This document shows, piece after piece, positions 2,657 through 56,424 of a DNA stretch of 64,000 nt (the first letter of the stretch is position 1; every line of letters starts with the position of its first letter). A program made the position numbers and the translations under genes. The notes under the pieces were generated by a model. It saw only the letters and a program-made list of their open reading frames with translations, made no database searches and was not told where the DNA came from. The DNA comes from Clostridia bacterium (GTDB taxonomy: Bacteria > Bacillota > Clostridia > Oscillospirales > CAG-272). The DNA lies in assembly GCA_017472695.1 (NCBI GenBank), contig JAFUOQ010000010.1:22187-86186 (forward strand), written 5' to 3'.

Positions 2657-3600
2657 TGGCAGATAAGATAGCAACAAGAGAAGCCTATGGCAATGCCTTG
2701 GCAGAGCTGGGCGAGATAAATAAGGACATTGTTGTTTTGGATGCGGACTTGGCAGAGGCAACAAAAACCTGTATCTTTAAAAAGAAATTTCCCGAGAGAT
2801 TTATTGACTGTGGTATTGCAGAAAATAATATGTTTTCAGTAGCTGCAGGTCTTTCTACCTGTGGTAAAATTCCTTTTGCAAGCACATTTGCTATGTTTGC
2901 AGCAGGACGTAGCTTTGACCAAGTTAGAAACTCAATAGGTTACCCACACTTAAACGTTAAAATTTGTGCAACTCACGCAGGTATTTCAGTAGGCGAGGAC
3001 GGTGCAACCCACCAATGCAACGAGGATATCGCGCTTATGCGTACAATTCCAGGTATGGTTGTTATCAACCCAAGTGATGGTGTTGAGGCTCGTGCAGCAG
3101 TTATGGCAGCGGTTGAATATAACGGCCCTGTATATATTCGCTTTGGCAGACTTGCACTTCCTATTATCAACAATAACGAGGGCTATAAATTTGAAATTGG
3201 CAAGGCTATTAAAATGGCAGAGGGCACAGATGTTACTATTGTTGCTAACGGTATGATGGTATCAGAAGCACTTGAGGCTAAAAAAATCCTTGCTGAGGAG
3301 GGTATCTCCGCTTCAGTTATCAACGCGCATACAGTTAAGCCACTTGATGTCGAAACCATAGTAAGCGACGCAAAGAAAACAGGCGCAGTAGTGGTTAGTG
3401 AGGAGCACAATATTATCGGAGGCCTATGCTCAGCAGTTGCCGAGGCAATAGGCGAAAATTATCCGGTTCCTGTTGTGCGCCACGGCGTTGAGGATGTATT
3501 CGGTAAGAGCGGCCCTGCAAAGGAGCTTATCGAATACTACGGACTAAACGCAAAGGGAATAGTAGAGAAGGCAAAGAAGGCAATAAGCTTAAAGAAATAA
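2656..3600 (+). CDS. Transketolase, C-terminal (pyrimidine-binding) subunit
   Basis: 314 aa. The start overlaps the upstream stop (TAATG). Typical tkt C-half sequence (GIAENNM, THAGISVGEDGATHQ). Confidence 0.9.
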   Translation: MADKIATREAYGNALAELGEINKDIVVLDADLAEATKTCIFKKKFPERFIDCGIAENNMFSVAAGLSTCGKIPFASTFAMFAAGRSFDQVRNSIGYPHLNVKICATHAGISVGEDGATHQCNEDIALMRTIPGMVVINPSDGVEARAAVMAAVEYNGPVYIRFGRLALPIINNNEGYKFEIGKAIKMAEGTDVTIVANGMMVSEALEAKKILAEEGISASVINAHTVKPLDVETIVSDAKKTGAVVVSEEHNIIGGLCSAVAEAIGENYPVPVVRHGVEDVFGKSGPAKELIEYYGLNAKGIVEKAKKAISLKK

Positions 3601-3640: not shown

Positions 3641-3961
3641 TAAATGTAGGGGACACATTGACACTCGAAAACTTGTTTTCGTTAGTGGAAAGCGTACAAG
3701 GGAGTACGGCGACTCGTAGGGGCTGCTCCTCCCAAAAGCTTTTTAGATCCATTCGACTCGCGTTCGCTCGCTCAGGATGACGTAACTTACAACGTCATTC
3801 CGAGCCTGTCGAGGAATCTAAAAAGGGAAAATAATATAATAAATTGTAGGAGAGGGCTTGCTCCTTTCGAAAATAATGAAACAATCAAACAAAACGGGAG
3901 GATGATATCCTCCCCTACAAAAAACACAAAAGAATGTAGGGGAGGCAATCTGCCTCCCTTT
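3641..3961. repeat. REP/BIME-like cluster of hairpin modules (C, D, A+B palindromic unit, E, F, G)
   Basis: Seven modules make up this cluster, each with a copy at 21545-21950:
- C: GTAGGGGACACATTGACACTC at 3647
- D: CGTTAGTGGAAAGCGTACAAGGGAG at 3680
- A: TAGATCCATTCGACTCGC..CTCAGGATGACGTA at 3744-3784
- B: ACGTCATTCCGAGCCTGTCGAGGAATCT at 3792-3819
- E: ATTGTAGGAGAGGGCTTGCTCC at 3843
- F: GGGAGGATGATATCCTCCCCTACA at 3896-3919
- G: GTAGGGGAGGCAATCTGCCTCCC at 3936-3958. Confidence 0.9.
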
Positions 3962-4456
3962 TTAATTCAATTTTATCGCCTCTATCACAATATCAAACTC
4001 GTATTTATCAGAGAAGATTTCTATTCTTTTTGGTAAATCGTTTTCACCTATTGTGATTTTATATGTGCCGAGTGTATTATTAAATTCCATACAGGCGCTG
4101 GATTTGTCAGGGGTGGCAGAGGCAAGGCTACTTTCCTCCAAGGAAAACATAGCAAGGATTGCCGAAACCCCGCTTAAATTATCGCTATCAAACGGAATTT
4201 CAACCTCGCCTGCACGCCCAATGATTTTTCCGTCAGTCTCTATAAAGGAAACAGAAGAAAGCTCCTCGGGATATAAAAACTGCAAGGAGCGAACACCCTC
4301 TTTTTTTGATACTGCCAGCTTATATTCGCCATTGAGAGAGCACTCTGCGTAAATGTCACCCTCTTGATACGATAAAATTCCATAGCTTTGTCCATGGCAC
4401 GAGGAAAGCACCAAGGAAAAAAGCAAAATAGACATAAAAATAGCAACCTTTTTCAT
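3962..4456 (-). CDS. Putative lipoprotein, unknown function
   Basis: 164 aa. Signal peptide with lipobox-like LSSC (MKKVAIFMSILLFSLVLSSCHG). Confidence 0.6.
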   Translation of the reverse strand: MKKVAIFMSILLFSLVLSSCHGQSYGILSYQEGDIYAECSLNGEYKLAVSKKEGVRSLQFLYPEELSSVSFIETDGKIIGRAGEVEIPFDSDNLSGVSAILAMFSLEESSLASATPDKSSACMEFNNTLGTYKITIGENDLPKRIEIFSDKYEFDIVIEAIKLN

Positions 4457-6860: not shown

Positions 6861-6960
6861 TGTCACTGTGTAGTGTCAAAAAAGAGTGAAAAACAAAGCA
6901 AAATGCGAGTATTGGCAAAAAGAAATATTTTAAGGTGTCAAAATGTCAAGACAGGTCGAT
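6861..6960. promoter_or_regulatory. Cluster of TGTCA(A/C)-type boxes upstream of spoIIE (possible Spo0A boxes)
   Basis: TGTCACT at 6861, TGTCAAA at 6874, TGTCAAA at 6936, TGTCAAG at 6944, GGTCGAT at 6954. They resemble the 0A box TGNCGAA. spoIIE is Spo0A-dependent in Bacillus. Confidence 0.25.
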
Positions 6961-17442: not shown

Positions 17443-17463
17443 TTTGTATAAACTAAATAAACA

Positions 17464-17491
17464 AAAAGCCACGAGCAATCGTGGCTTTTTT
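17464..17491 (+). terminator. Intrinsic terminator fused to palindromic repeat unit
   Basis: GCCACG-AGCAAT-CGTGGC hairpin followed by TTTTTT. Same design as 21516-21544, with compensatory stem changes. Confidence 0.85.
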
Positions 17492-17610
17492 AGATCCTTC
17501 GACTCGCTTCGTTCGCTCAGGATGACGTAGCGATTAGACCCATTCGACTGCGCTCAGGGTGACATGCAAATGTATCTTAATACGTCATTCCGAGCTTGCC
17601 GAGGAATCTC
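17491..17610. repeat. Palindromic unit A+B with nested extra left arm
   Basis: TAGATCCTTCGACTCGCTTCGTTCGCTCAGGATGACGTA at 17491-17529. Variant AGACCCATTCGACTGCGCTCAGGGTGACA at 17536-17564. ACGTCATTCCGAGCTTGCCGAGGAATCT at 17582-17609. Confidence 0.9.
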
Positions 17611-21496: not shown

Positions 21497-21515
21497 TATT
21501 ATTTAAAATCAATGC

Positions 21516-21544
21516 AAAAATCCCCGAGCAATCGGGGATTTTTT
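21516..21544 (+). terminator. Intrinsic terminator fused to palindromic repeat unit
   Basis: TCCCCG-AGCAAT-CGGGGA hairpin followed by TTTTTT. Confidence 0.85.
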
Positions 21545-21950
21545 AGATCCTTCGACTCGCATTCGCTCGCTCAGGATGACGTAGCTTTTGCGCTTCACAA
21601 CGTCATTCCGAGCTTGTCGAGGAATCTATTAGCAGGAGGATTTAAAATTGTAGAGGAAGGGCTTGCTCCTCCCGAAAAATAAAGGATGAAGCAAACGGGA
21701 GGATGATATCCTCCCCTACATAGAACAATATTGATACATCGTAGGGGACACATTGACACTCAAAAACTGCCTCCATCCTTGAGGGAGGTGGATTTTGCGG
21801 AGCAAAAGACGGAAGGAGTATCGTTAGTGGAAAGCGTACAAGGGAGCGTAGCGAGTCGTAGGCAATCTGCCTCCCGAAAATATTTTTAGATCCATTCGAC
21901 TCGCTTTGCTTCGCTCAGGATGACGTAGGGGCGAACATTGTTCGTCCGCC
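21545..21950. repeat. Large REP/BIME-like cluster (modules A, B, E, F, C, H, D, G, A, I)
   Basis: Same module set as 3641-3961 but in a different order, with module H (also at 8332) inserted between C and D. It ends with GTAGGGGCGAACATTGTTCGTCCGCC, which is also present at 54663. Confidence 0.9.
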
Positions 21951-54357: not shown

Positions 54358-54538
54358 AATGCAGTAAATTTTTAAGGAAGAAAAGAGGGCATTACCCACT
54401 TTTCAATGTGTGATTTTTACACACGACCGAGTCCTCTGTCGTACACCAGTACGCCGACGTTGACTCGCTCGTGCATTTTCCCTACCTCTTGAAGGCTCTA
54501 ATCAAAATTGGTGCGTATTGTCAGAAATAGTAATATTT

Positions 54539-54712
54539 TAGGGGGGAGGCTTGCTCCTCCCGATTTTATGTCAGGTGTAAAATTGTACGTGTGACCATTG
54601 ATCACCATAAAAAAGAGACTCGGTAAGGCGGACTTCTCATAAGGATGTTTACCTGACACACGGTAGGGGCGAACTGCGTTCGCCCGCGTGAGACCACAGT
54701 TCCCCCTACGAA
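54539..54712. repeat. REP-like module cluster
   Basis: TAGGGGGGAGGCTTGCTCCTCCC at 54539 (module E type). AAAAAAGAGACTCGGTAAGG..CTTCTCATAAGGA at 54609, related to 56127-56170 on the opposite strand. GTAGGGGCGAACTGCGTTCGCCC at 54663 (module I). An inverted head GTTCCCCCTAC at 54699. Confidence 0.8.
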
Positions 54713-54734: not shown

Positions 54735-54780
54735 AAACAAATAATTATCCCCGACAGACTTTAAAAAATCTGTCGGGGAT
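54735..54780 (-). terminator. Terminator of the GNAT gene
   Basis: ATCCCCGACAGA-N10-TCTGTCGGGGAT hairpin with T-rich flanks on both strands. Confidence 0.7.
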
Positions 54781-54790
54781 TATTATATTT

Positions 54791-55318
54791 TTATAACAAA
54801 AACTCCATATATCTGTCTTGTTTGGTATCTACATATTCAGGAATGATTTCCAAGGCATCTTTACACCCAATATTAAAATAAAAACTCACTGTTTCAACAG
54901 AGGGTATTGCAGAAATGAAAATTTTGTCTGCCTTCAATAGCCTTGCACAGTTACAAATTTCAAAAAACAGTTTTTTTCCAATACCTTTTCTTTTATATCT
55001 ATCATCTACAAACAGCATGGTCATATTGGCATATTTTGCTGTTTTCCCTAATAAGCATCCATCTATAGAACAGAACCCAATTAAAATATCTTCATCAAAC
55101 GCCGCAACAACAAAGCCGCCTCGTTCGATTTGTTGTTGCAAATATTGCGATATCCATTTCTTTTTTTCGAGGCTCCATTCACGCAGAATATGTGTATCGG
55201 TCGTTTTCCACTCGTTGTTGTCATGTATATATGTTTTCGTTATTACTTGATGATGACAAAAATCAAATAACAGTTCAGACACAATATTTTCAATAGTTAA
55301 AGTTATAATCTTTACCAT
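54791..55318 (-). CDS. GNAT-family N-acetyltransferase
   Basis: 175 aa. Acetyl-CoA motif A: VDDRYKRKGIGKKLF. Confidence 0.75.
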   Translation of the reverse strand: MVKIITLTIENIVSELLFDFCHHQVITKTYIHDNNEWKTTDTHILREWSLEKKKWISQYLQQQIERGGFVVAAFDEDILIGFCSIDGCLLGKTAKYANMTMLFVDDRYKRKGIGKKLFFEICNCARLLKADKIFISAIPSVETVSFYFNIGCKDALEIIPEYVDTKQDRYMEFLL

Positions 55319-55379
55319 ATATGCATCCTTCGAATAAGTTGTTTTATCGCCAGTTTCGCCTTTGTATTACAAAGGCATA

Positions 55380-55550
55380 GGGCAAAGCCCATACCCCTAA
55401 AGATGCACGAGCCCTGAGGCTCCCTCCGGGAGGGAGCTGGCGCCGTAGGCGACTGAGGGAGAGCGCGTTACAATGAAGTTAGCGCAAAACTAAAGTCACG
55501 CAGGCTCCTTCCACCGCTAACGCGGTCCCCCTCCCTCTCGGAGGGAGGCT
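55380..55550. repeat. GC-rich hairpin repeat cluster overlapping the DUF559 gene 3' end
   Basis: Perfect palindrome GCTCCCTCC-G-GGAGGGAGC at 55419-55437. GTAGGCGACTGAGGGAGAGCG at 55444. CCTCCCTCTCGGAGGGAGG at 55528-55548, inside the last 14 codons of the DUF559 ORF. Confidence 0.8.
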
Positions 55551-55894
55551 TTTACGGTGGCATCAATATACTCGCAGACACCCCGAAAATTCGTGTTGAT
55601 TTGTTGGTTTGTAAACCGCAAGATTTTCAGATCATACCCTTCAAGTATTTCCGTGCGGAATTCATCCTTTTGCCTGCCTTCTTCGGTATAATGCTGTGAC
55701 CCATCAATTTCTATGATTAGTTTGGCTTTGTGACAGTAAAAATCCGCAATAAAATTGTCTATGGCTTTTTGCCTTTGAAATCTAATTTCATATTTTGATA
55801 GGAAATCGTACCACAAATGATTTTCCTGCGGTGTTGCATTTTTACGAAGATTTCTTGCAAGAGTAATATTCTTTTCGTTGTAATCCAGCGACAT
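55517..55894 (-). CDS. DUF559 (Vsr-like endonuclease fold) domain protein
   Basis: 125 aa. ARNLRKNATPQENHLWYDFL..RFQRQKAIDNFIADFYCHKAKLIIEIDGSQH pattern typical of DUF559. The C-terminal tail (ASLREGGGPR) is encoded by a repeat hairpin. Confidence 0.75.
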   Translation of the reverse strand: MSLDYNEKNITLARNLRKNATPQENHLWYDFLSKYEIRFQRQKAIDNFIADFYCHKAKLIIEIDGSQHYTEEGRQKDEFRTEILEGYDLKILRFTNQQINTNFRGVCEYIDATVKASLREGGGPR

Positions 55895-55953
55895 ACTTAC
55901 TCCTCCAAAATTTTATCGTTTCCATTATATCACAAATCGGCAGAGAAAGCAAA

Positions 55954-56153
55954 AGTTATATTCCGACTGCGTCGGAGTGATATTATCGCTTACGCAATAG
56001 TGATATTGAAGCCTTACGGCTTCAGTGATATTTTATTCGCCTTCAAAACTCGCGAAGCGAATACCACTCGGCGCAAGCCGAATATCACTGCGAAGCAATA
56101 TCACTCGCCGCAAGGCGAATAAAACTGCCCAACTTCCTTATGAGAAGTTGGGC
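55954..56153. repeat. Mirror-symmetric array of eight 9-mer boxes (AGTGATATT x4 then AATATCACT x4) separated by mini-hairpins
   Basis: Left boxes at 55954 (AGTTATATT), 55976, 55999 and 56024. Right boxes at 56060 (AATACCACT), 56081, 56097 and 56118 (AATAAAACT). The hairpin spacers are:
- CCGAC-TGC-GTCGG
- GAAGCC-TTAC-GGCTTC
- CGGC-GCAA-GCCG
- GC-GAA-GC
- CGCC-GCAA-GGCG
- final GCCCAACTTC-N7-GAAGTTGGGC at 56127-56153. Confidence 0.85.
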
Positions 56154-56172
56154 AAACGAGTCTCTTTTTTTA

Positions 56173-56424
56173 TTATTTAACAGTAACAACCTTATAGTCT
56201 TTCCATCCTTAAAGTCTTAAGCCTCCTTTGTGCAAAGGGAGGTGGGTTGCGATAGCAACTCGGAGGGATTGATTATTTAACTACTACAGATACCTTGTGT
56301 GTCTTTCGATCCTTAAAGTCTTAAGCCTCCTTTGTGCAAAGGGAGGTGGGTTGCGATAGCAACTCGGAGGGATTGATTATTTAACTACTACAGATACCTT
56401 GTGTGTCTTTCCATCCTTAAAGTC
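56173..56424 (-). repeat. 104-bp tandem unit: 48-bp copy of the GH94-like CDS 3' end + 56-bp double-hairpin element; 2 units plus a diverged third CDS-end copy
   Basis: CDS-end copies at 56377-56424 (functional), 56273-56320 (1 mismatch) and 56173-56216 (diverged, 4 nt shorter). Identical elements at 56321-56376 and 56217-56272 (TTAAGCCTCCTTTGTGCAAAGGGAGGTGGGTTGCGATAGCAACTCGGAGGGATTGA). Confidence 0.9.

Follow-up and report, generated by a model that had tools for sequence, protein, structure and literature searches.

In a 64-kb window of a Clostridia bacterium contig (the window being the whole stretch of DNA analysed, 64,000 nucleotides), a small DUF559 gene is preceded by a mirror-symmetric array of short boxes separated by hairpins, located at 55953-56127. 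The question raised by this locus is what this array is, and whether the nuclease-like gene is its functional partner or a neighbour that has arrived independently.

Composition of the box and hairpin array

A search for the exact box AGTGATATT has revealed 7 copies in the 64-kb window versus 0.69 expected, a number reached by none of 100 shuffled sequences. Five of the seven copies were found inside 55976-56105, on the plus strand at 55976, 55999 and 56024 and on the minus strand at 56081 and 56097. The degenerate boxes are AGTTATATT at 55954 and, in reverse complement, those at 56060 (AGTGGTATT) and 56118 (AGTTTTATT). The count of four plus four boxes proposed in the initial annotation holds when these degenerate boxes are included, but not for exact AGTGATATT copies (three plus and two minus). 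One array was detected in the whole 64-kb window. The boxes occur in two flavours, GTGATAT and GTGAAAT, and the box spacing of 22-26 bp in this type of element lacks helical phasing.

Every inter-box spacer contains a distinct small hairpin, in agreement with those listed previously, and a further hairpin that was absent from that list (ATCGC-TTAC-GCAAT) has a C.A mismatch on the plus strand that corresponds to a G.U pair on the minus strand. The description of these mini-hairpins as very stable was overstated, with nearest-neighbour energies, calculated as DNA, of -0.3 to -5.4 kcal/mol. At least four Watson-Crick pairs, counted from both ends, were present in 65% of 98 distinct spacers from 30 related elements, versus 0.6% after shuffling. 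No two hairpins share a sequence, 167 distinct ones having been counted.

A CRISPR array would have direct repeats about 23-50 nt long, interspersed with unique spacers of comparable length. It was rejected because the boxes measure 7-9 nt and the spacers between them are palindromes of 7-16 nt, the whole forming two inverted sets; the sole match to a CRISPR direct repeat had an E-value of 0.53. Likenesses of the box to parS/NBS half-sites, to omega-repressor heptads, to box C/D K-turns and to the 3' end of 16S rRNA are considered coincidental, and they were dropped because none accommodates both the GTGATAT and the GTGAAAT flavour.

Identification of the array as a two-armed Gut-1 element

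The mirror array represents an already catalogued motif, the Gut-1 hairpin motif, and not a new kind of repeat. Membership of the Gut-1 RNA family (RF01706) was assigned at covariance-model scores equal to or above the curated gathering score of 50 bits. The right half of the array (56056-56127, minus strand) scored 56.3 bits (E = 1.8e-8 over the whole window), and the model alignment displayed the hallmarks of the family, namely three consecutive hairpins, conserved AU/GU bases and GUGAAAU-type linkers. The left half (55953-56036, plus strand) scored 37.4 bits (E = 4e-5), under the gathering score, and therefore it is not by itself a member of RF01706.

The A arm, in the Rfam sense, extends over 56046-56127 on the minus strand, with the RF01706 match and hairpin covariation as evidence. 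It includes boxes A1 (56118-56126), A2 (56097-56105), A3 (56081-56089) and A4 (56060-56068), and hairpins at 56106-56117, 56090-56096, 56069-56080 and 56051-56059. The B arm, an inverted Gut-1-like copy with the weaker match, occupies 55953-56036 on the plus strand, with boxes at 56024-56032, 55999-56007, 55976-55984 and 55954-55962 and hairpins at 56008-56023, 55985-55998 and 55963-55975; when read on the minus strand it presents AAUAUCACU linkers separating hairpins with GUAA, GUAA and GCA loops. The same fixed two-arm layout was found in about 30 related loci, with 4+4 boxes, regular spacings and hairpins that covary, one arm being closed by a long-range helix (P0), and this mirror layout is already visible in rows of the original Gut-1 alignment.

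In the window, the 3' strand of P0 (AAGGCGAAUAAAA, minus strand, 56031-56043) is a 13-nt segment fully complementary (100%) to UUUUAUUCGCCUU at 56112-56124, so that hairpins 2-4 of the A arm are enclosed by P0, a pairing that competes with A-arm hairpin 1. All 30 oriented elements have a centre-to-A-end complement of 8-12 nt, 8 nt being the selection limit. In alignment A2, P0 was 99% paired, and one of its pairs was AU in six sequences, UA in five and CG in three.

Regarding the local hairpins, 91% of the cells in an alignment of 14 elements were paired, versus 78% in shuffled and 32-46% in slid controls. Doubly changed pairs amounted to 28, a value reached in 0 of 500 shuffles, and the strongest covariation was found in the B-arm hairpins (helices 6, 7 and 9). 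The B-arm boxes themselves are strictly conserved and nearly invariant. Thermodynamically, the best fold is a rod formed by pairing of the A-arm boxes to those of the B arm, yet this pairing lacks covariation (88.3% paired versus 88.0% when shuffled, with zero compensated changes), and it was discarded as a selected structure.

Modules flanking the Gut-1 element

On the minus strand, the Gut-1 element is preceded by the hairpin T1 (GCCCAACTTC...GAAGTTGGGC, 56126-56154), with 11-nt perfect inverted arms, a DNA fold of -9.9 kcal/mol (z = -6.2) and a terminator-like match on the minus strand only. As it is followed by UUUUAUU on this strand, T1 is predicted to serve the upstream GH94 gene as an intrinsic terminator. 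This hairpin is shared ahead of Gut-1 in loci L053, L086 and L282, and its stem shows a compensatory change (GCGAGAC/GTCTCGC) in L288 and L206.

A putative outward-facing promoter (55924-55952, minus strand) begins 2 nt past the last B box and consists of a -35 element TTGCTT (55952-55947), a 17-nt spacer and TGn-TATAAT (55932-55924), with a ribosome-binding site GGAGGAG at 55906-55900. The promoter was read directly from the sequence, and it was missed by the consensus scan because its -35 element matches at only three of six positions. Homologous promoters of the form TTGAC(T/A)-17-TATAAT occupy the equivalent position in PF05635 cassettes, and at least nine other loci have them too.

The right-end (RE) module (GGGGTATGGGCTTTGCCC..GCCTTTGTAATACAAAGGC GAAACTGGCGATAAAA, minus strand, 55341-55398) is a conserved hairpin module that is also present 3' of the PF05635 stop codons in L272-L300 and in L053, L124 and L013; in L029 it directly follows the B arm, free of cargo. 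RE was seen in one sub-lineage only and is missing behind the PF05635 genes of L016, L087, L034 and L086.

For the purpose of this analysis, a cassette frame was defined as the collinear arrangement of T1, two-armed Gut-1 and outward promoter on the left and RE on the right. This frame was found in the window block 55341-56154 (minus strand) by the RE motif scan and by alignment A3, which includes the window, the PF05635 loci L288, L282 and L272, and L053, from five gene contexts in which T1, Gut-1 and promoter align, RE aligns and the interior differs. The frame of L053 has no ORF and retains the array and the GC-rich tail described below. Visual comparison suggests a likeness of the left end GTTTTATTCGCC to the inverted right end GGCGATAAAAC, which is weak and without covariation between variants, and no target-site duplication was seen, also by eye, at the cassette flanks.

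Usual cargo and the DUF559 unit

The full cassette frame was present in five of five sampled relatives of one PF05635 (four-helix-bundle) subfamily, a sample with at least 87% identity, and in six Gut-1 loci recovered by a pattern scan the PF05635 gene is located 30-60 nt past the B arm. In most Gut-1 composites the neighbours are different ones, or a second terminator is present. A tblastn search revealed no PF05635 gene anywhere in the 64-kb window, where the cargo slot contains the DUF559 gene and a GC-rich tail instead. An interpretation of the PF05635 genes and a 104-bp repeat as a diversity-generating retroelement (DGR) was rejected because there is no reverse transcriptase nearby; the two copies of this repeat, which differ at a single base (99% identity), also argue against it.

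The DUF559 ORF carried as cargo by the window cassette (125 aa, 55517-55894, minus strand) matched PF04480 with an E-value of 2.8e-28 (98.4 bits versus a cutoff of 20.6) and the 'endonuclease-like protein' of PDB entry 3HRL with an E-value of 4e-9, and its product is predicted to have a Vsr-like endonuclease fold. Homologues with E < 1e-10 amounted to 6037, many of them 84-97% identical and located on short contigs. The previously noted cluster of GC-rich hairpins is real: it is a MITE-like hairpin element (55417-55556, minus strand) at the 3' end of the DUF559 unit, of which it is the tail. Its inverted arms, 20 nt each, lie at 55417-55436 and 55531-55550, and it overlaps the last codons of the ORF (...SLREGGGPR). 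The whole unit, gene and tail, spans 55417-55929. The tail accompanies DUF559 where the surrounding genes are different, and L126, L128 and L130 have an additional GC-rich copy upstream of the gene.

Co-occurrence of DUF559 genes and box and hairpin arrays, expected from the initial annotation, was not observed. When the array loci were searched by tblastn with the window DUF559 protein, a DUF559 gene was found in one of 120, 2 kb off the array, and box arrays were absent from all 11 close DUF559 loci (88-89% amino acid identity, two other gene contexts), whose DNA homology to the window ends at 55929/55937, short of the array. Arrays and DUF559 genes are thus distributed independently, the outcome that the initial annotation had named as refuting its proposal, and therefore the idea of DUF559 as a second REP-processing enzyme is left without support. 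DUF559 and its GC-rich tail are a separate multi-copy unit, and since this unit is independent and replaces the usual cargo, DUF559 is a passenger and not the partner of the array. The idea of a selfish unit with structured repeats at its borders persists in modified form: DUF559 plus tail is a context-hopping, multi-copy unit, and the whole block is a recurrent modular cassette whose cargo slot is normally occupied by a PF05635 gene.

Genomic context

The A arm was located directly behind a co-oriented tRNA gene in 7 of 27 oriented elements from the genome scan, and tRNA 3'-end fragments adjoin some copies. The upstream gene is groEL in L086 and GH94 in the window, and L071 contains two near-identical copies 2.7 kb apart. 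Conservation of the block at the orthologous locus was not found: the closest GH94 relatives found (81% amino acid identity) lack the whole block and have a plain terminator downstream. No ORF resembling an integrase, transposase or recombinase was noticed in the sequences that flank L071, L016 and L086, and neither a filled/empty site pair nor a mobilising enzyme was found. A phage or plasmid origin is unsupported, with zero matches in plasmid records, short fragments in two phage-labelled contigs only, and 3 of 120 viral pattern matches resembling Gut-1.

Strand preference of the folded element

Folding of the element as a whole is better, in 27 of 30 elements, on the A-first strand, which reads the A arm first and is the minus strand in the window. 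This strand is also favoured by six conserved U.G pairs at the bases of the A-arm hairpins and by the co-orientation of the B-side gene in 18 of 25 loci. Against the minus strand, in 24 of 30 elements it is the opposite strand that gives the better fold of the B arm, each arm preferring to fold in its own sense strand. Wobble pairs were 7 on the A-first strand versus 3 on the other, a count that is not decisive for the strand. The hairpins have few G.U pairs, and on the strand opposite to the Rfam sense of each arm they show C-G-closed GNA/GNNA loops. Stable DNA hairpins typically have loops of this kind as well. A structural role as a single strand, on the minus strand, is favoured for Gut-1.

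Proposed organization and alternative explanations

It is well supported that the block 55341-56154 represents a modular intergenic Gut-1 cassette of uncultured gut Clostridia in which the PF05635 cargo has been replaced by a DUF559 unit. The order of modules on the minus strand is T1, A arm closed by P0, inverted B arm, sigma-70-type promoter, small ORF and RE. The ORF is, in one large subfamily, a PF05635 four-helix-bundle (Avd/23S-IVS-like) gene, swapped here for the independent multi-copy DUF559 unit with its GC-rich tail. The cassette may multiply as DNA by trans-mobilisation or recombination, and copies are located just behind tRNA or other co-oriented genes. Gut-1 would work as a folded single strand, most likely, with about an even chance, a minus-strand RNA produced by read-through of T1, which could constitute a barrier or processing platform between upstream transcription and the promoter of the cassette. 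The strictly conserved AAUAUCAC linkers may be recognised by a factor acting in trans, for which the four-helix-bundle protein is a candidate. Considered as a whole, cassette identity and working together, this explanation is judged probable. Counting against it are the strict conservation of the B-arm boxes, for which it does not account, the failure to find a mobilising enzyme, target-site duplication or filled/empty site pair, the PF05635 sample from a single subfamily, the restriction of RE to one sub-lineage and the different neighbours of most Gut-1 composites.

A free-standing trans-acting sRNA gene (or two convergent ones), unrelated to its neighbours and with boxes that bind protein or RNA, for example as a sponge, is a doubtful alternative. 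Gut-1 is classed as a non-cis-regulatory ncRNA by Rfam and by Weinberg et al. (2010, PMC2864571), and the covariation of the hairpins, the best fold of each arm in its own sense strand and a terminator immediately past the B arm in several loci would fit with such a gene; however, the gap from T1 to the A arm is too small for a promoter, there is no consistent promoter ahead of the B arm on the other strand, the A arm is found immediately behind tRNA genes and terminators, and in many contexts an outward promoter and a PF05635 ORF are physically coupled to Gut-1. The original description reports the occurrence of Gut-1 in human-gut sequences and nothing further (Weinberg et al. 2010, PMC2864571), and neither a function for Gut-1 nor a link between Gut-1 and PF05635 was found in the literature. 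The A arm of the window is a bona fide member of RF01706, with three hairpins with AU...GU bases and GA(A/U) linkers, and it shares with this family the occurrence in gut metagenomes and gut Clostridia. Unlike the 77-nt model of a stand-alone sRNA, the element described here has two arms, about 200 nt, P0 and a leading T1, and is the left module of a cassette with promoter, ORF and right end.

It seems rather improbable that the two-armed array serves, in the form of folded single-stranded DNA, as an attC- or REP/BIME-like site of recombination or mobilisation, by which an enzyme encoded elsewhere moves promoter-bearing mini-cassettes behind tRNA genes or terminators. The layout as two inverted arms, in which short boxes are conserved and the hairpins change in sequence yet keep their structure, the C-G-closed loops with few G.U pairs, the many contexts with module shuffling between copies and same-contig duplicates, and the tRNA 3'-end fragments are all in favour of such a site. 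Pairing from arm to arm, however, does not covary and equals that of shuffled sequences, and the flanks without integrase or transposase (L071, L016 and L086), the lack of visible target-site duplications and the plasmid and phage searches also argue against it. Similarly to integron cassettes and their attC sites, Gut-1 is an imperfect palindrome with conserved inverse boxes and a variable interior, beside small exchangeable ORFs; unlike them, arm-to-arm pairing is not conserved, the cassettes bring their own promoter, and neither integrase nor attI was seen in the three flanks mentioned. To our knowledge, integrons have not been reported in this bacterial group. Enterobacterial REP/BIME and pneumococcal BOX elements are also small, multi-copy, transposase-free intergenic mosaics of inverted hairpin units behind gene 3' ends, but their architecture is variable, whereas Gut-1 has a fixed 4+4 design, hairpins that all differ in sequence with only the 7-9-nt boxes conserved, and coupling to an outward promoter and a small ORF. 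A REP/BIME system with a RAYT-type enzyme was rejected because there is no near-identical palindromic unit, the hairpins being different and the array single in the 64-kb window.

That the boxes are double-stranded DNA operators for a regulator of the outward promoter, with incidental hairpins, is very unlikely: the -35 element lies 0-7 nt past the end of the last B box in at least nine loci and the B boxes are nearly invariant, but compensatory changes preserve the spacer palindromes, which binding to a duplex does not need, the box spacing has no helical phasing, and some copies are followed by a terminator in place of the promoter.

Finally, processing or mobilisation of the flanking repeats by DUF559 in a RAYT/REP-like manner, as initially suggested from an array directly upstream of the gene and hairpins on both sides of it, is scarcely credible, as is its variant of a type III antitoxin-like RNA for DUF559, being contradicted by the distribution of both elements, by the ORF-free locus L053, by the PF05635 gene that occupies the same slot elsewhere, by the promoter between array and ORF, and by the non-identical repeat units. 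The window resembles type III toxin-antitoxin loci (ToxIN) in having short structured repeats directly upstream of a small nuclease-fold gene; a ToxIN-like locus was rejected because ToxI consists of near-identical 36-nt units co-transcribed with the toxin gene, whereas the units of the window differ, a promoter intervenes, and the ORF is exchangeable, the array preceding PF05635 genes or no ORF in other loci.

The proposed Gut-1 cassette shares with 23S rRNA intervening sequences, and with the Avd proteins of diversity-generating retroelements, a usual cargo of the same PF05635 family (PMC10053308). As in the intervening sequences, structured nucleic acid surrounds the gene and is itself joined to stable-RNA genes with strong expression, rRNA in that case and tRNA 3' flanks in this one. 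It differs in being outside rRNA, in having its own promoter and in having no reverse transcriptase or template/variable repeat nearby. A further proposal is that the two-armed Gut-1 is the cis-acting site of a new class of promoter-bearing mini-cassettes, acting either as a site at which the folded strand is recombined or mobilised, so that cassettes dock behind tRNA genes and terminators, or as an RNA that partners the Avd-like four-helix-bundle protein usually encoded by the cassette, with a cargo slot open to selfish genes such as DUF559; this is conceivable and quite unlikely.

Under the cassette explanation preferred here, the catalogued Gut-1 motif, an orphan since 2010, is here the front end of a small gene cassette present in many copies in gut Clostridia. 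Its function has become testable, as a two-armed element with a closing helix, located behind tRNA genes and terminators and coupled to a promoter and a PF05635 or DUF559 gene. The locus would also provide a concrete case of how two very abundant 'hitch-hiker' families of gut Firmicutes, PF05635 and DUF559, may be packaged and exchanged.

Identification and architecture of the repeat array

The array of box and hairpin repeats located upstream of the DUF559 ORF (55953-56127) is a known motif. A scan against Rfam matched Gut-1 RNA (RF01706) at 56056-56127 on the minus strand with 56.3 bits (gathering score 50), and a second, inverted match was found at 55953-56036 on the plus strand (37.4 bits, E=4e-5). 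Weinberg et al. (2010) described Gut-1 only from human-gut sequences, as a probable non-cis-regulatory RNA without known function; the mirrored half was already present in rows of their alignment. Because the RF01706 model has three hairpins with A-U and U.G pairs at their bases, joined by GAA-type linkers, the conserved boxes described in the initial annotation correspond to hairpin bases plus linker. The exact 9-mer AGTGATATT was found seven times in the 64 kb versus 0.69 expected (as many copies in 0/100 shuffles), and five of these copies are located between 55976 and 56105, three on the plus strand followed by two on the minus strand. The proposed count of four plus four boxes holds only loosely, with degenerate boxes included (the outermost at 55954 and 56118, the innermost right-hand one at 56060). 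Every inter-box spacer is indeed a different small palindrome, and the hairpins claimed there stand; calling them very stable is an overstatement, as nearest-neighbour energies were modest (-0.3 to -5.4 kcal/mol as DNA).

A pattern scan for three GTGAWAT boxes, using one genome per species, yielded at least 120 loci, and the matches listed belong to many MAGs of Clostridia, Oscillospiraceae, Ruminococcus, Acutalibacteraceae and Christensenellaceae. Plus-strand boxes come first and minus-strand boxes second in every listed array with both orientations. The layout is fixed: a centre of roughly 35 nt separates an A arm of four boxes, spaced 16-22 nt, from a B arm of four boxes, spaced 22-26 nt. 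Only one of the two box flavours, GTGATAT or GTGAAAT, is used per element. The hairpins are real: at least four Watson-Crick pairs counted from both ends were present in 65% of 98 distinct spacers versus 0.6% after shuffling, and in an alignment of 14 elements 91% of cells were paired (78% shuffled, 32-46% slid), with 28 pairs changed on both sides, a number matched by 0/500 shuffles.

The element is not a simple palindrome: a central segment is the complement of the A arm's outer end. In the window this long-range helix (P0) joins 56031-56043 to 56112-56124 with 13/13 complementary positions; it is 99% paired in the alignment, one pair being A-U in six sequences, U-A in five and C-G in three. 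Pairing of boxes between the two arms is the thermodynamic optimum but is without covariation (88.3% paired versus 88.0% shuffled), so it is not for arm-to-arm pairing that the mirror symmetry has been kept.

In two loci of the same MAG (L012, 5800-5900; L015, 3380-3950, two in tandem) the arrays are Gut-1-like but single-armed, with four boxes, long hairpins and other conserved hairpins on their flanks; this appears to be another type of architecture within the family.

The DUF559 unit and its independence of the arrays

The DUF559 ORF (55517-55894, minus strand; PF04480, E=2.8e-28; PDB 3HRL) extends with its last codons into a GC-rich element whose inverted arms are 20 nt long, in agreement with the earlier observation that a hairpin of this cluster encodes the last residues of the protein. 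It had also been speculated that the nuclease could process such repeats, as a REP-processing enzyme, with the co-occurrence of arrays and DUF559 genes as the test. By that test the idea fails, since the arrays are distributed independently of DUF559: such a gene was found by tblastn in 1 of the 120 array loci listed (L054, 47% identity, 2 kb from the array).

All exact copies of the protein that were found come from other contigs of this species and sit at this one locus. Homologues with 88-89% identity have one of two other settings: they follow a MalK-type ABC transporter gene or adjoin P-II/DUF1538 genes, and no boxes were found near them in either. DNA homology of these loci to the window extends from 55929/55937 to 55417 only (to 55527 in locus L125), comprising the -10 region, the ORF and the GC-rich tail. 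The DUF559 family is very large and its members are often on short, assembly-breaking contigs. Because of these box-free contexts, the limit of homology at 55929/55937 and the large family on short contigs, DUF559 and its GC-rich tail can be regarded as an autonomous multi-copy unit.

In loci L126 and L128 the DUF559 unit is located between direct repeats of more than 300 bp (GC-rich tail plus spacer), which suggests tandem arrays of units or assembly wrap-around.

A cassette with conserved ends and exchangeable cargo

Locus L053, which comes from another MAG and has other neighbouring genes, aligns with the window at 56171-55922 (90%) and 55553-55342 (84-100%). The hairpin/terminator T1 (56126-56154, minus strand), the two arms and the promoter lie within the match, as do the GC-rich tail and 60 nt more; the DUF559 ORF is missing. 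In six pattern-scan loci (L016, L030, L034, L060, where it is frameshifted, L086 and L087), from at least four different contexts, the co-oriented gene 30-60 nt after the B arm encodes a PF05635 '23S rRNA intervening sequence' four-helix-bundle protein. A search with this PF05635 protein gave 7306 homologues with E<1e-15, mostly on short contigs, and a common frame was found in 5/5 homologues whose contigs were examined. These represent at least five contexts, including after GH31, after a tRNA-like end beside an ECF-S component gene and after isocitrate dehydrogenase. The frame consists of T1 and a complete two-armed Gut-1 immediately upstream, a TTGAC(T/A)-17-TATAAT promoter and the module GGGTATGGGCTTTGCCC..GCCTTTGTAATACAAAGGCGAAACTGGCGATAAA directly after the stop codon. 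This right-end module is present at 55341-55398 (minus strand) in the window, and also in L053, L124, L013 and L029; in L029 it directly follows the B arm with no cargo between. A five-way alignment revealed conserved left and right modules and an exchangeable interior, and the T1 stems carry compensatory differences between copies. In loci L295 and L296 the same ORF is combined with another T1 or another right end, so modules are shuffled between cassettes. These alignments give good support for the block in the window (55341-56154, minus strand) as a cassette of this kind, with DUF559 as replacement cargo.

The L053 copy carries an extra insertion of about 45 nt in the GC-rich tail (6866-6910, tgcggggttccccaaaacgaatgaaatgagttttgggggttctcgc), which is itself a hairpin.

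The whole block is absent from relatives with an 81% identical GH94. Locus L071 contains two nearly identical copies of T1 plus two-armed Gut-1 (90-480 and 2830-3260), 2.7 kb apart, and no recombinase is present; the first copy directly follows tRNA-Asn, and the intervening genes encode a histidine phosphatase, a 129-aa ORF of unknown family and a methyltransferase. In L013 (4740-4951) another Gut-1 array begins about 60 nt beyond the right-end module, and contig BAAZ01000130.1 of the Weinberg alignment has four Gut-1 hits spaced 240 nt; cassettes or cargo-less elements can thus occur in tandem.

Genomic position

When elements were oriented by P0, with the A arm read first, this arm directly followed a co-oriented tRNA gene plus terminator in 7/27 oriented genome-scan elements, and also in five further arrays; the upstream gene is groEL in L086 and GH94 in the window. 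T1 qualifies as a good terminator on the minus strand but not on the plus strand. A promoter starts 0-7 nt after the last B-side box in at least nine loci, a second terminator follows the B side in at least seven others, and the B-side gene is co-oriented in 18/25 loci by naive ORF calling.

Fragments resembling tRNA 3' ends (...CCCGCTCCA, ...GGCGCCTCCA) precede T1 in the A-side flanks of L087 and L102, where ARAGORN called no full tRNA gene. They are either tRNA ends carried along with the element or decayed tRNA genes.

Other repeats in the window

The 3'-terminal 48 nt of the GH94 gene, stop codon included, are present three times at 56169-56424, separated by a 56-nt GC-rich insert. Two copies form a 104-bp tandem repeat (56197-56300 and 56301-56404, 99% identical) and the third is more diverged. 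This repeat, absent from the GH94 relatives L136 and L137, looks like a small GC-rich element inserted with, or duplicated together with, the GH94 3' end. Other GC-rich intergenic repeat families and GGGAGG..CCTCCC hairpins were found at 3679-3974, 17462-17609 and 21515-21930, with 54531-54563 resembling 21643-21675, and several unrelated kinds of small structured repeat seem to be abundant in the genome. A 28-nt inverted repeat just downstream of a GNAT gene (54735-54792, 86% complementary, 2-nt loop) probably serves as a terminator in both directions; the weak miRNA/sRNA matches from Rfam in this region were dismissed as chance matches.

Possible function of the element

The compensatory evolution of the hairpins and P0 implies that a single-stranded state is required. 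The A-first strand (minus here) is favoured by better folding of the whole element in 27/30 cases (mean 4.7 kcal/mol), by six conserved U.G pairs at A-arm hairpin bases, which would be C.A mismatches on the other strand, and by co-orientation of the element with both neighbouring genes. We favour, at roughly even chances, an RNA-level barrier or processing platform that would separate a highly transcribed unit upstream from the promoter of the cassette, and whose linkers would be occupied by a trans factor. Several findings argue against a simple RNA reading: for the B arm, folding is better on the opposite strand in 24/30 cases; wobble pairs are scarce; the loops are GNA/GNNA on the strand opposite the Rfam sense of each arm, which stable DNA hairpins fit too; and the boxes of the B arm hardly vary though unpaired on the minus strand, which points to a putative sequence-specific partner. 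The element may instead be a folded-ssDNA mobilisation site; Gut-1 may also be a free-standing sRNA.

In a literature search, no description was found of a two-armed Gut-1, of its tRNA/terminator position or of its coupling to PF05635 cassettes. New for this motif are its two-armed architecture with P0, its site behind tRNA genes and terminators, and its coupling to a cassette of promoter plus PF05635 gene, in which DUF559 is the substitute cargo in the window.
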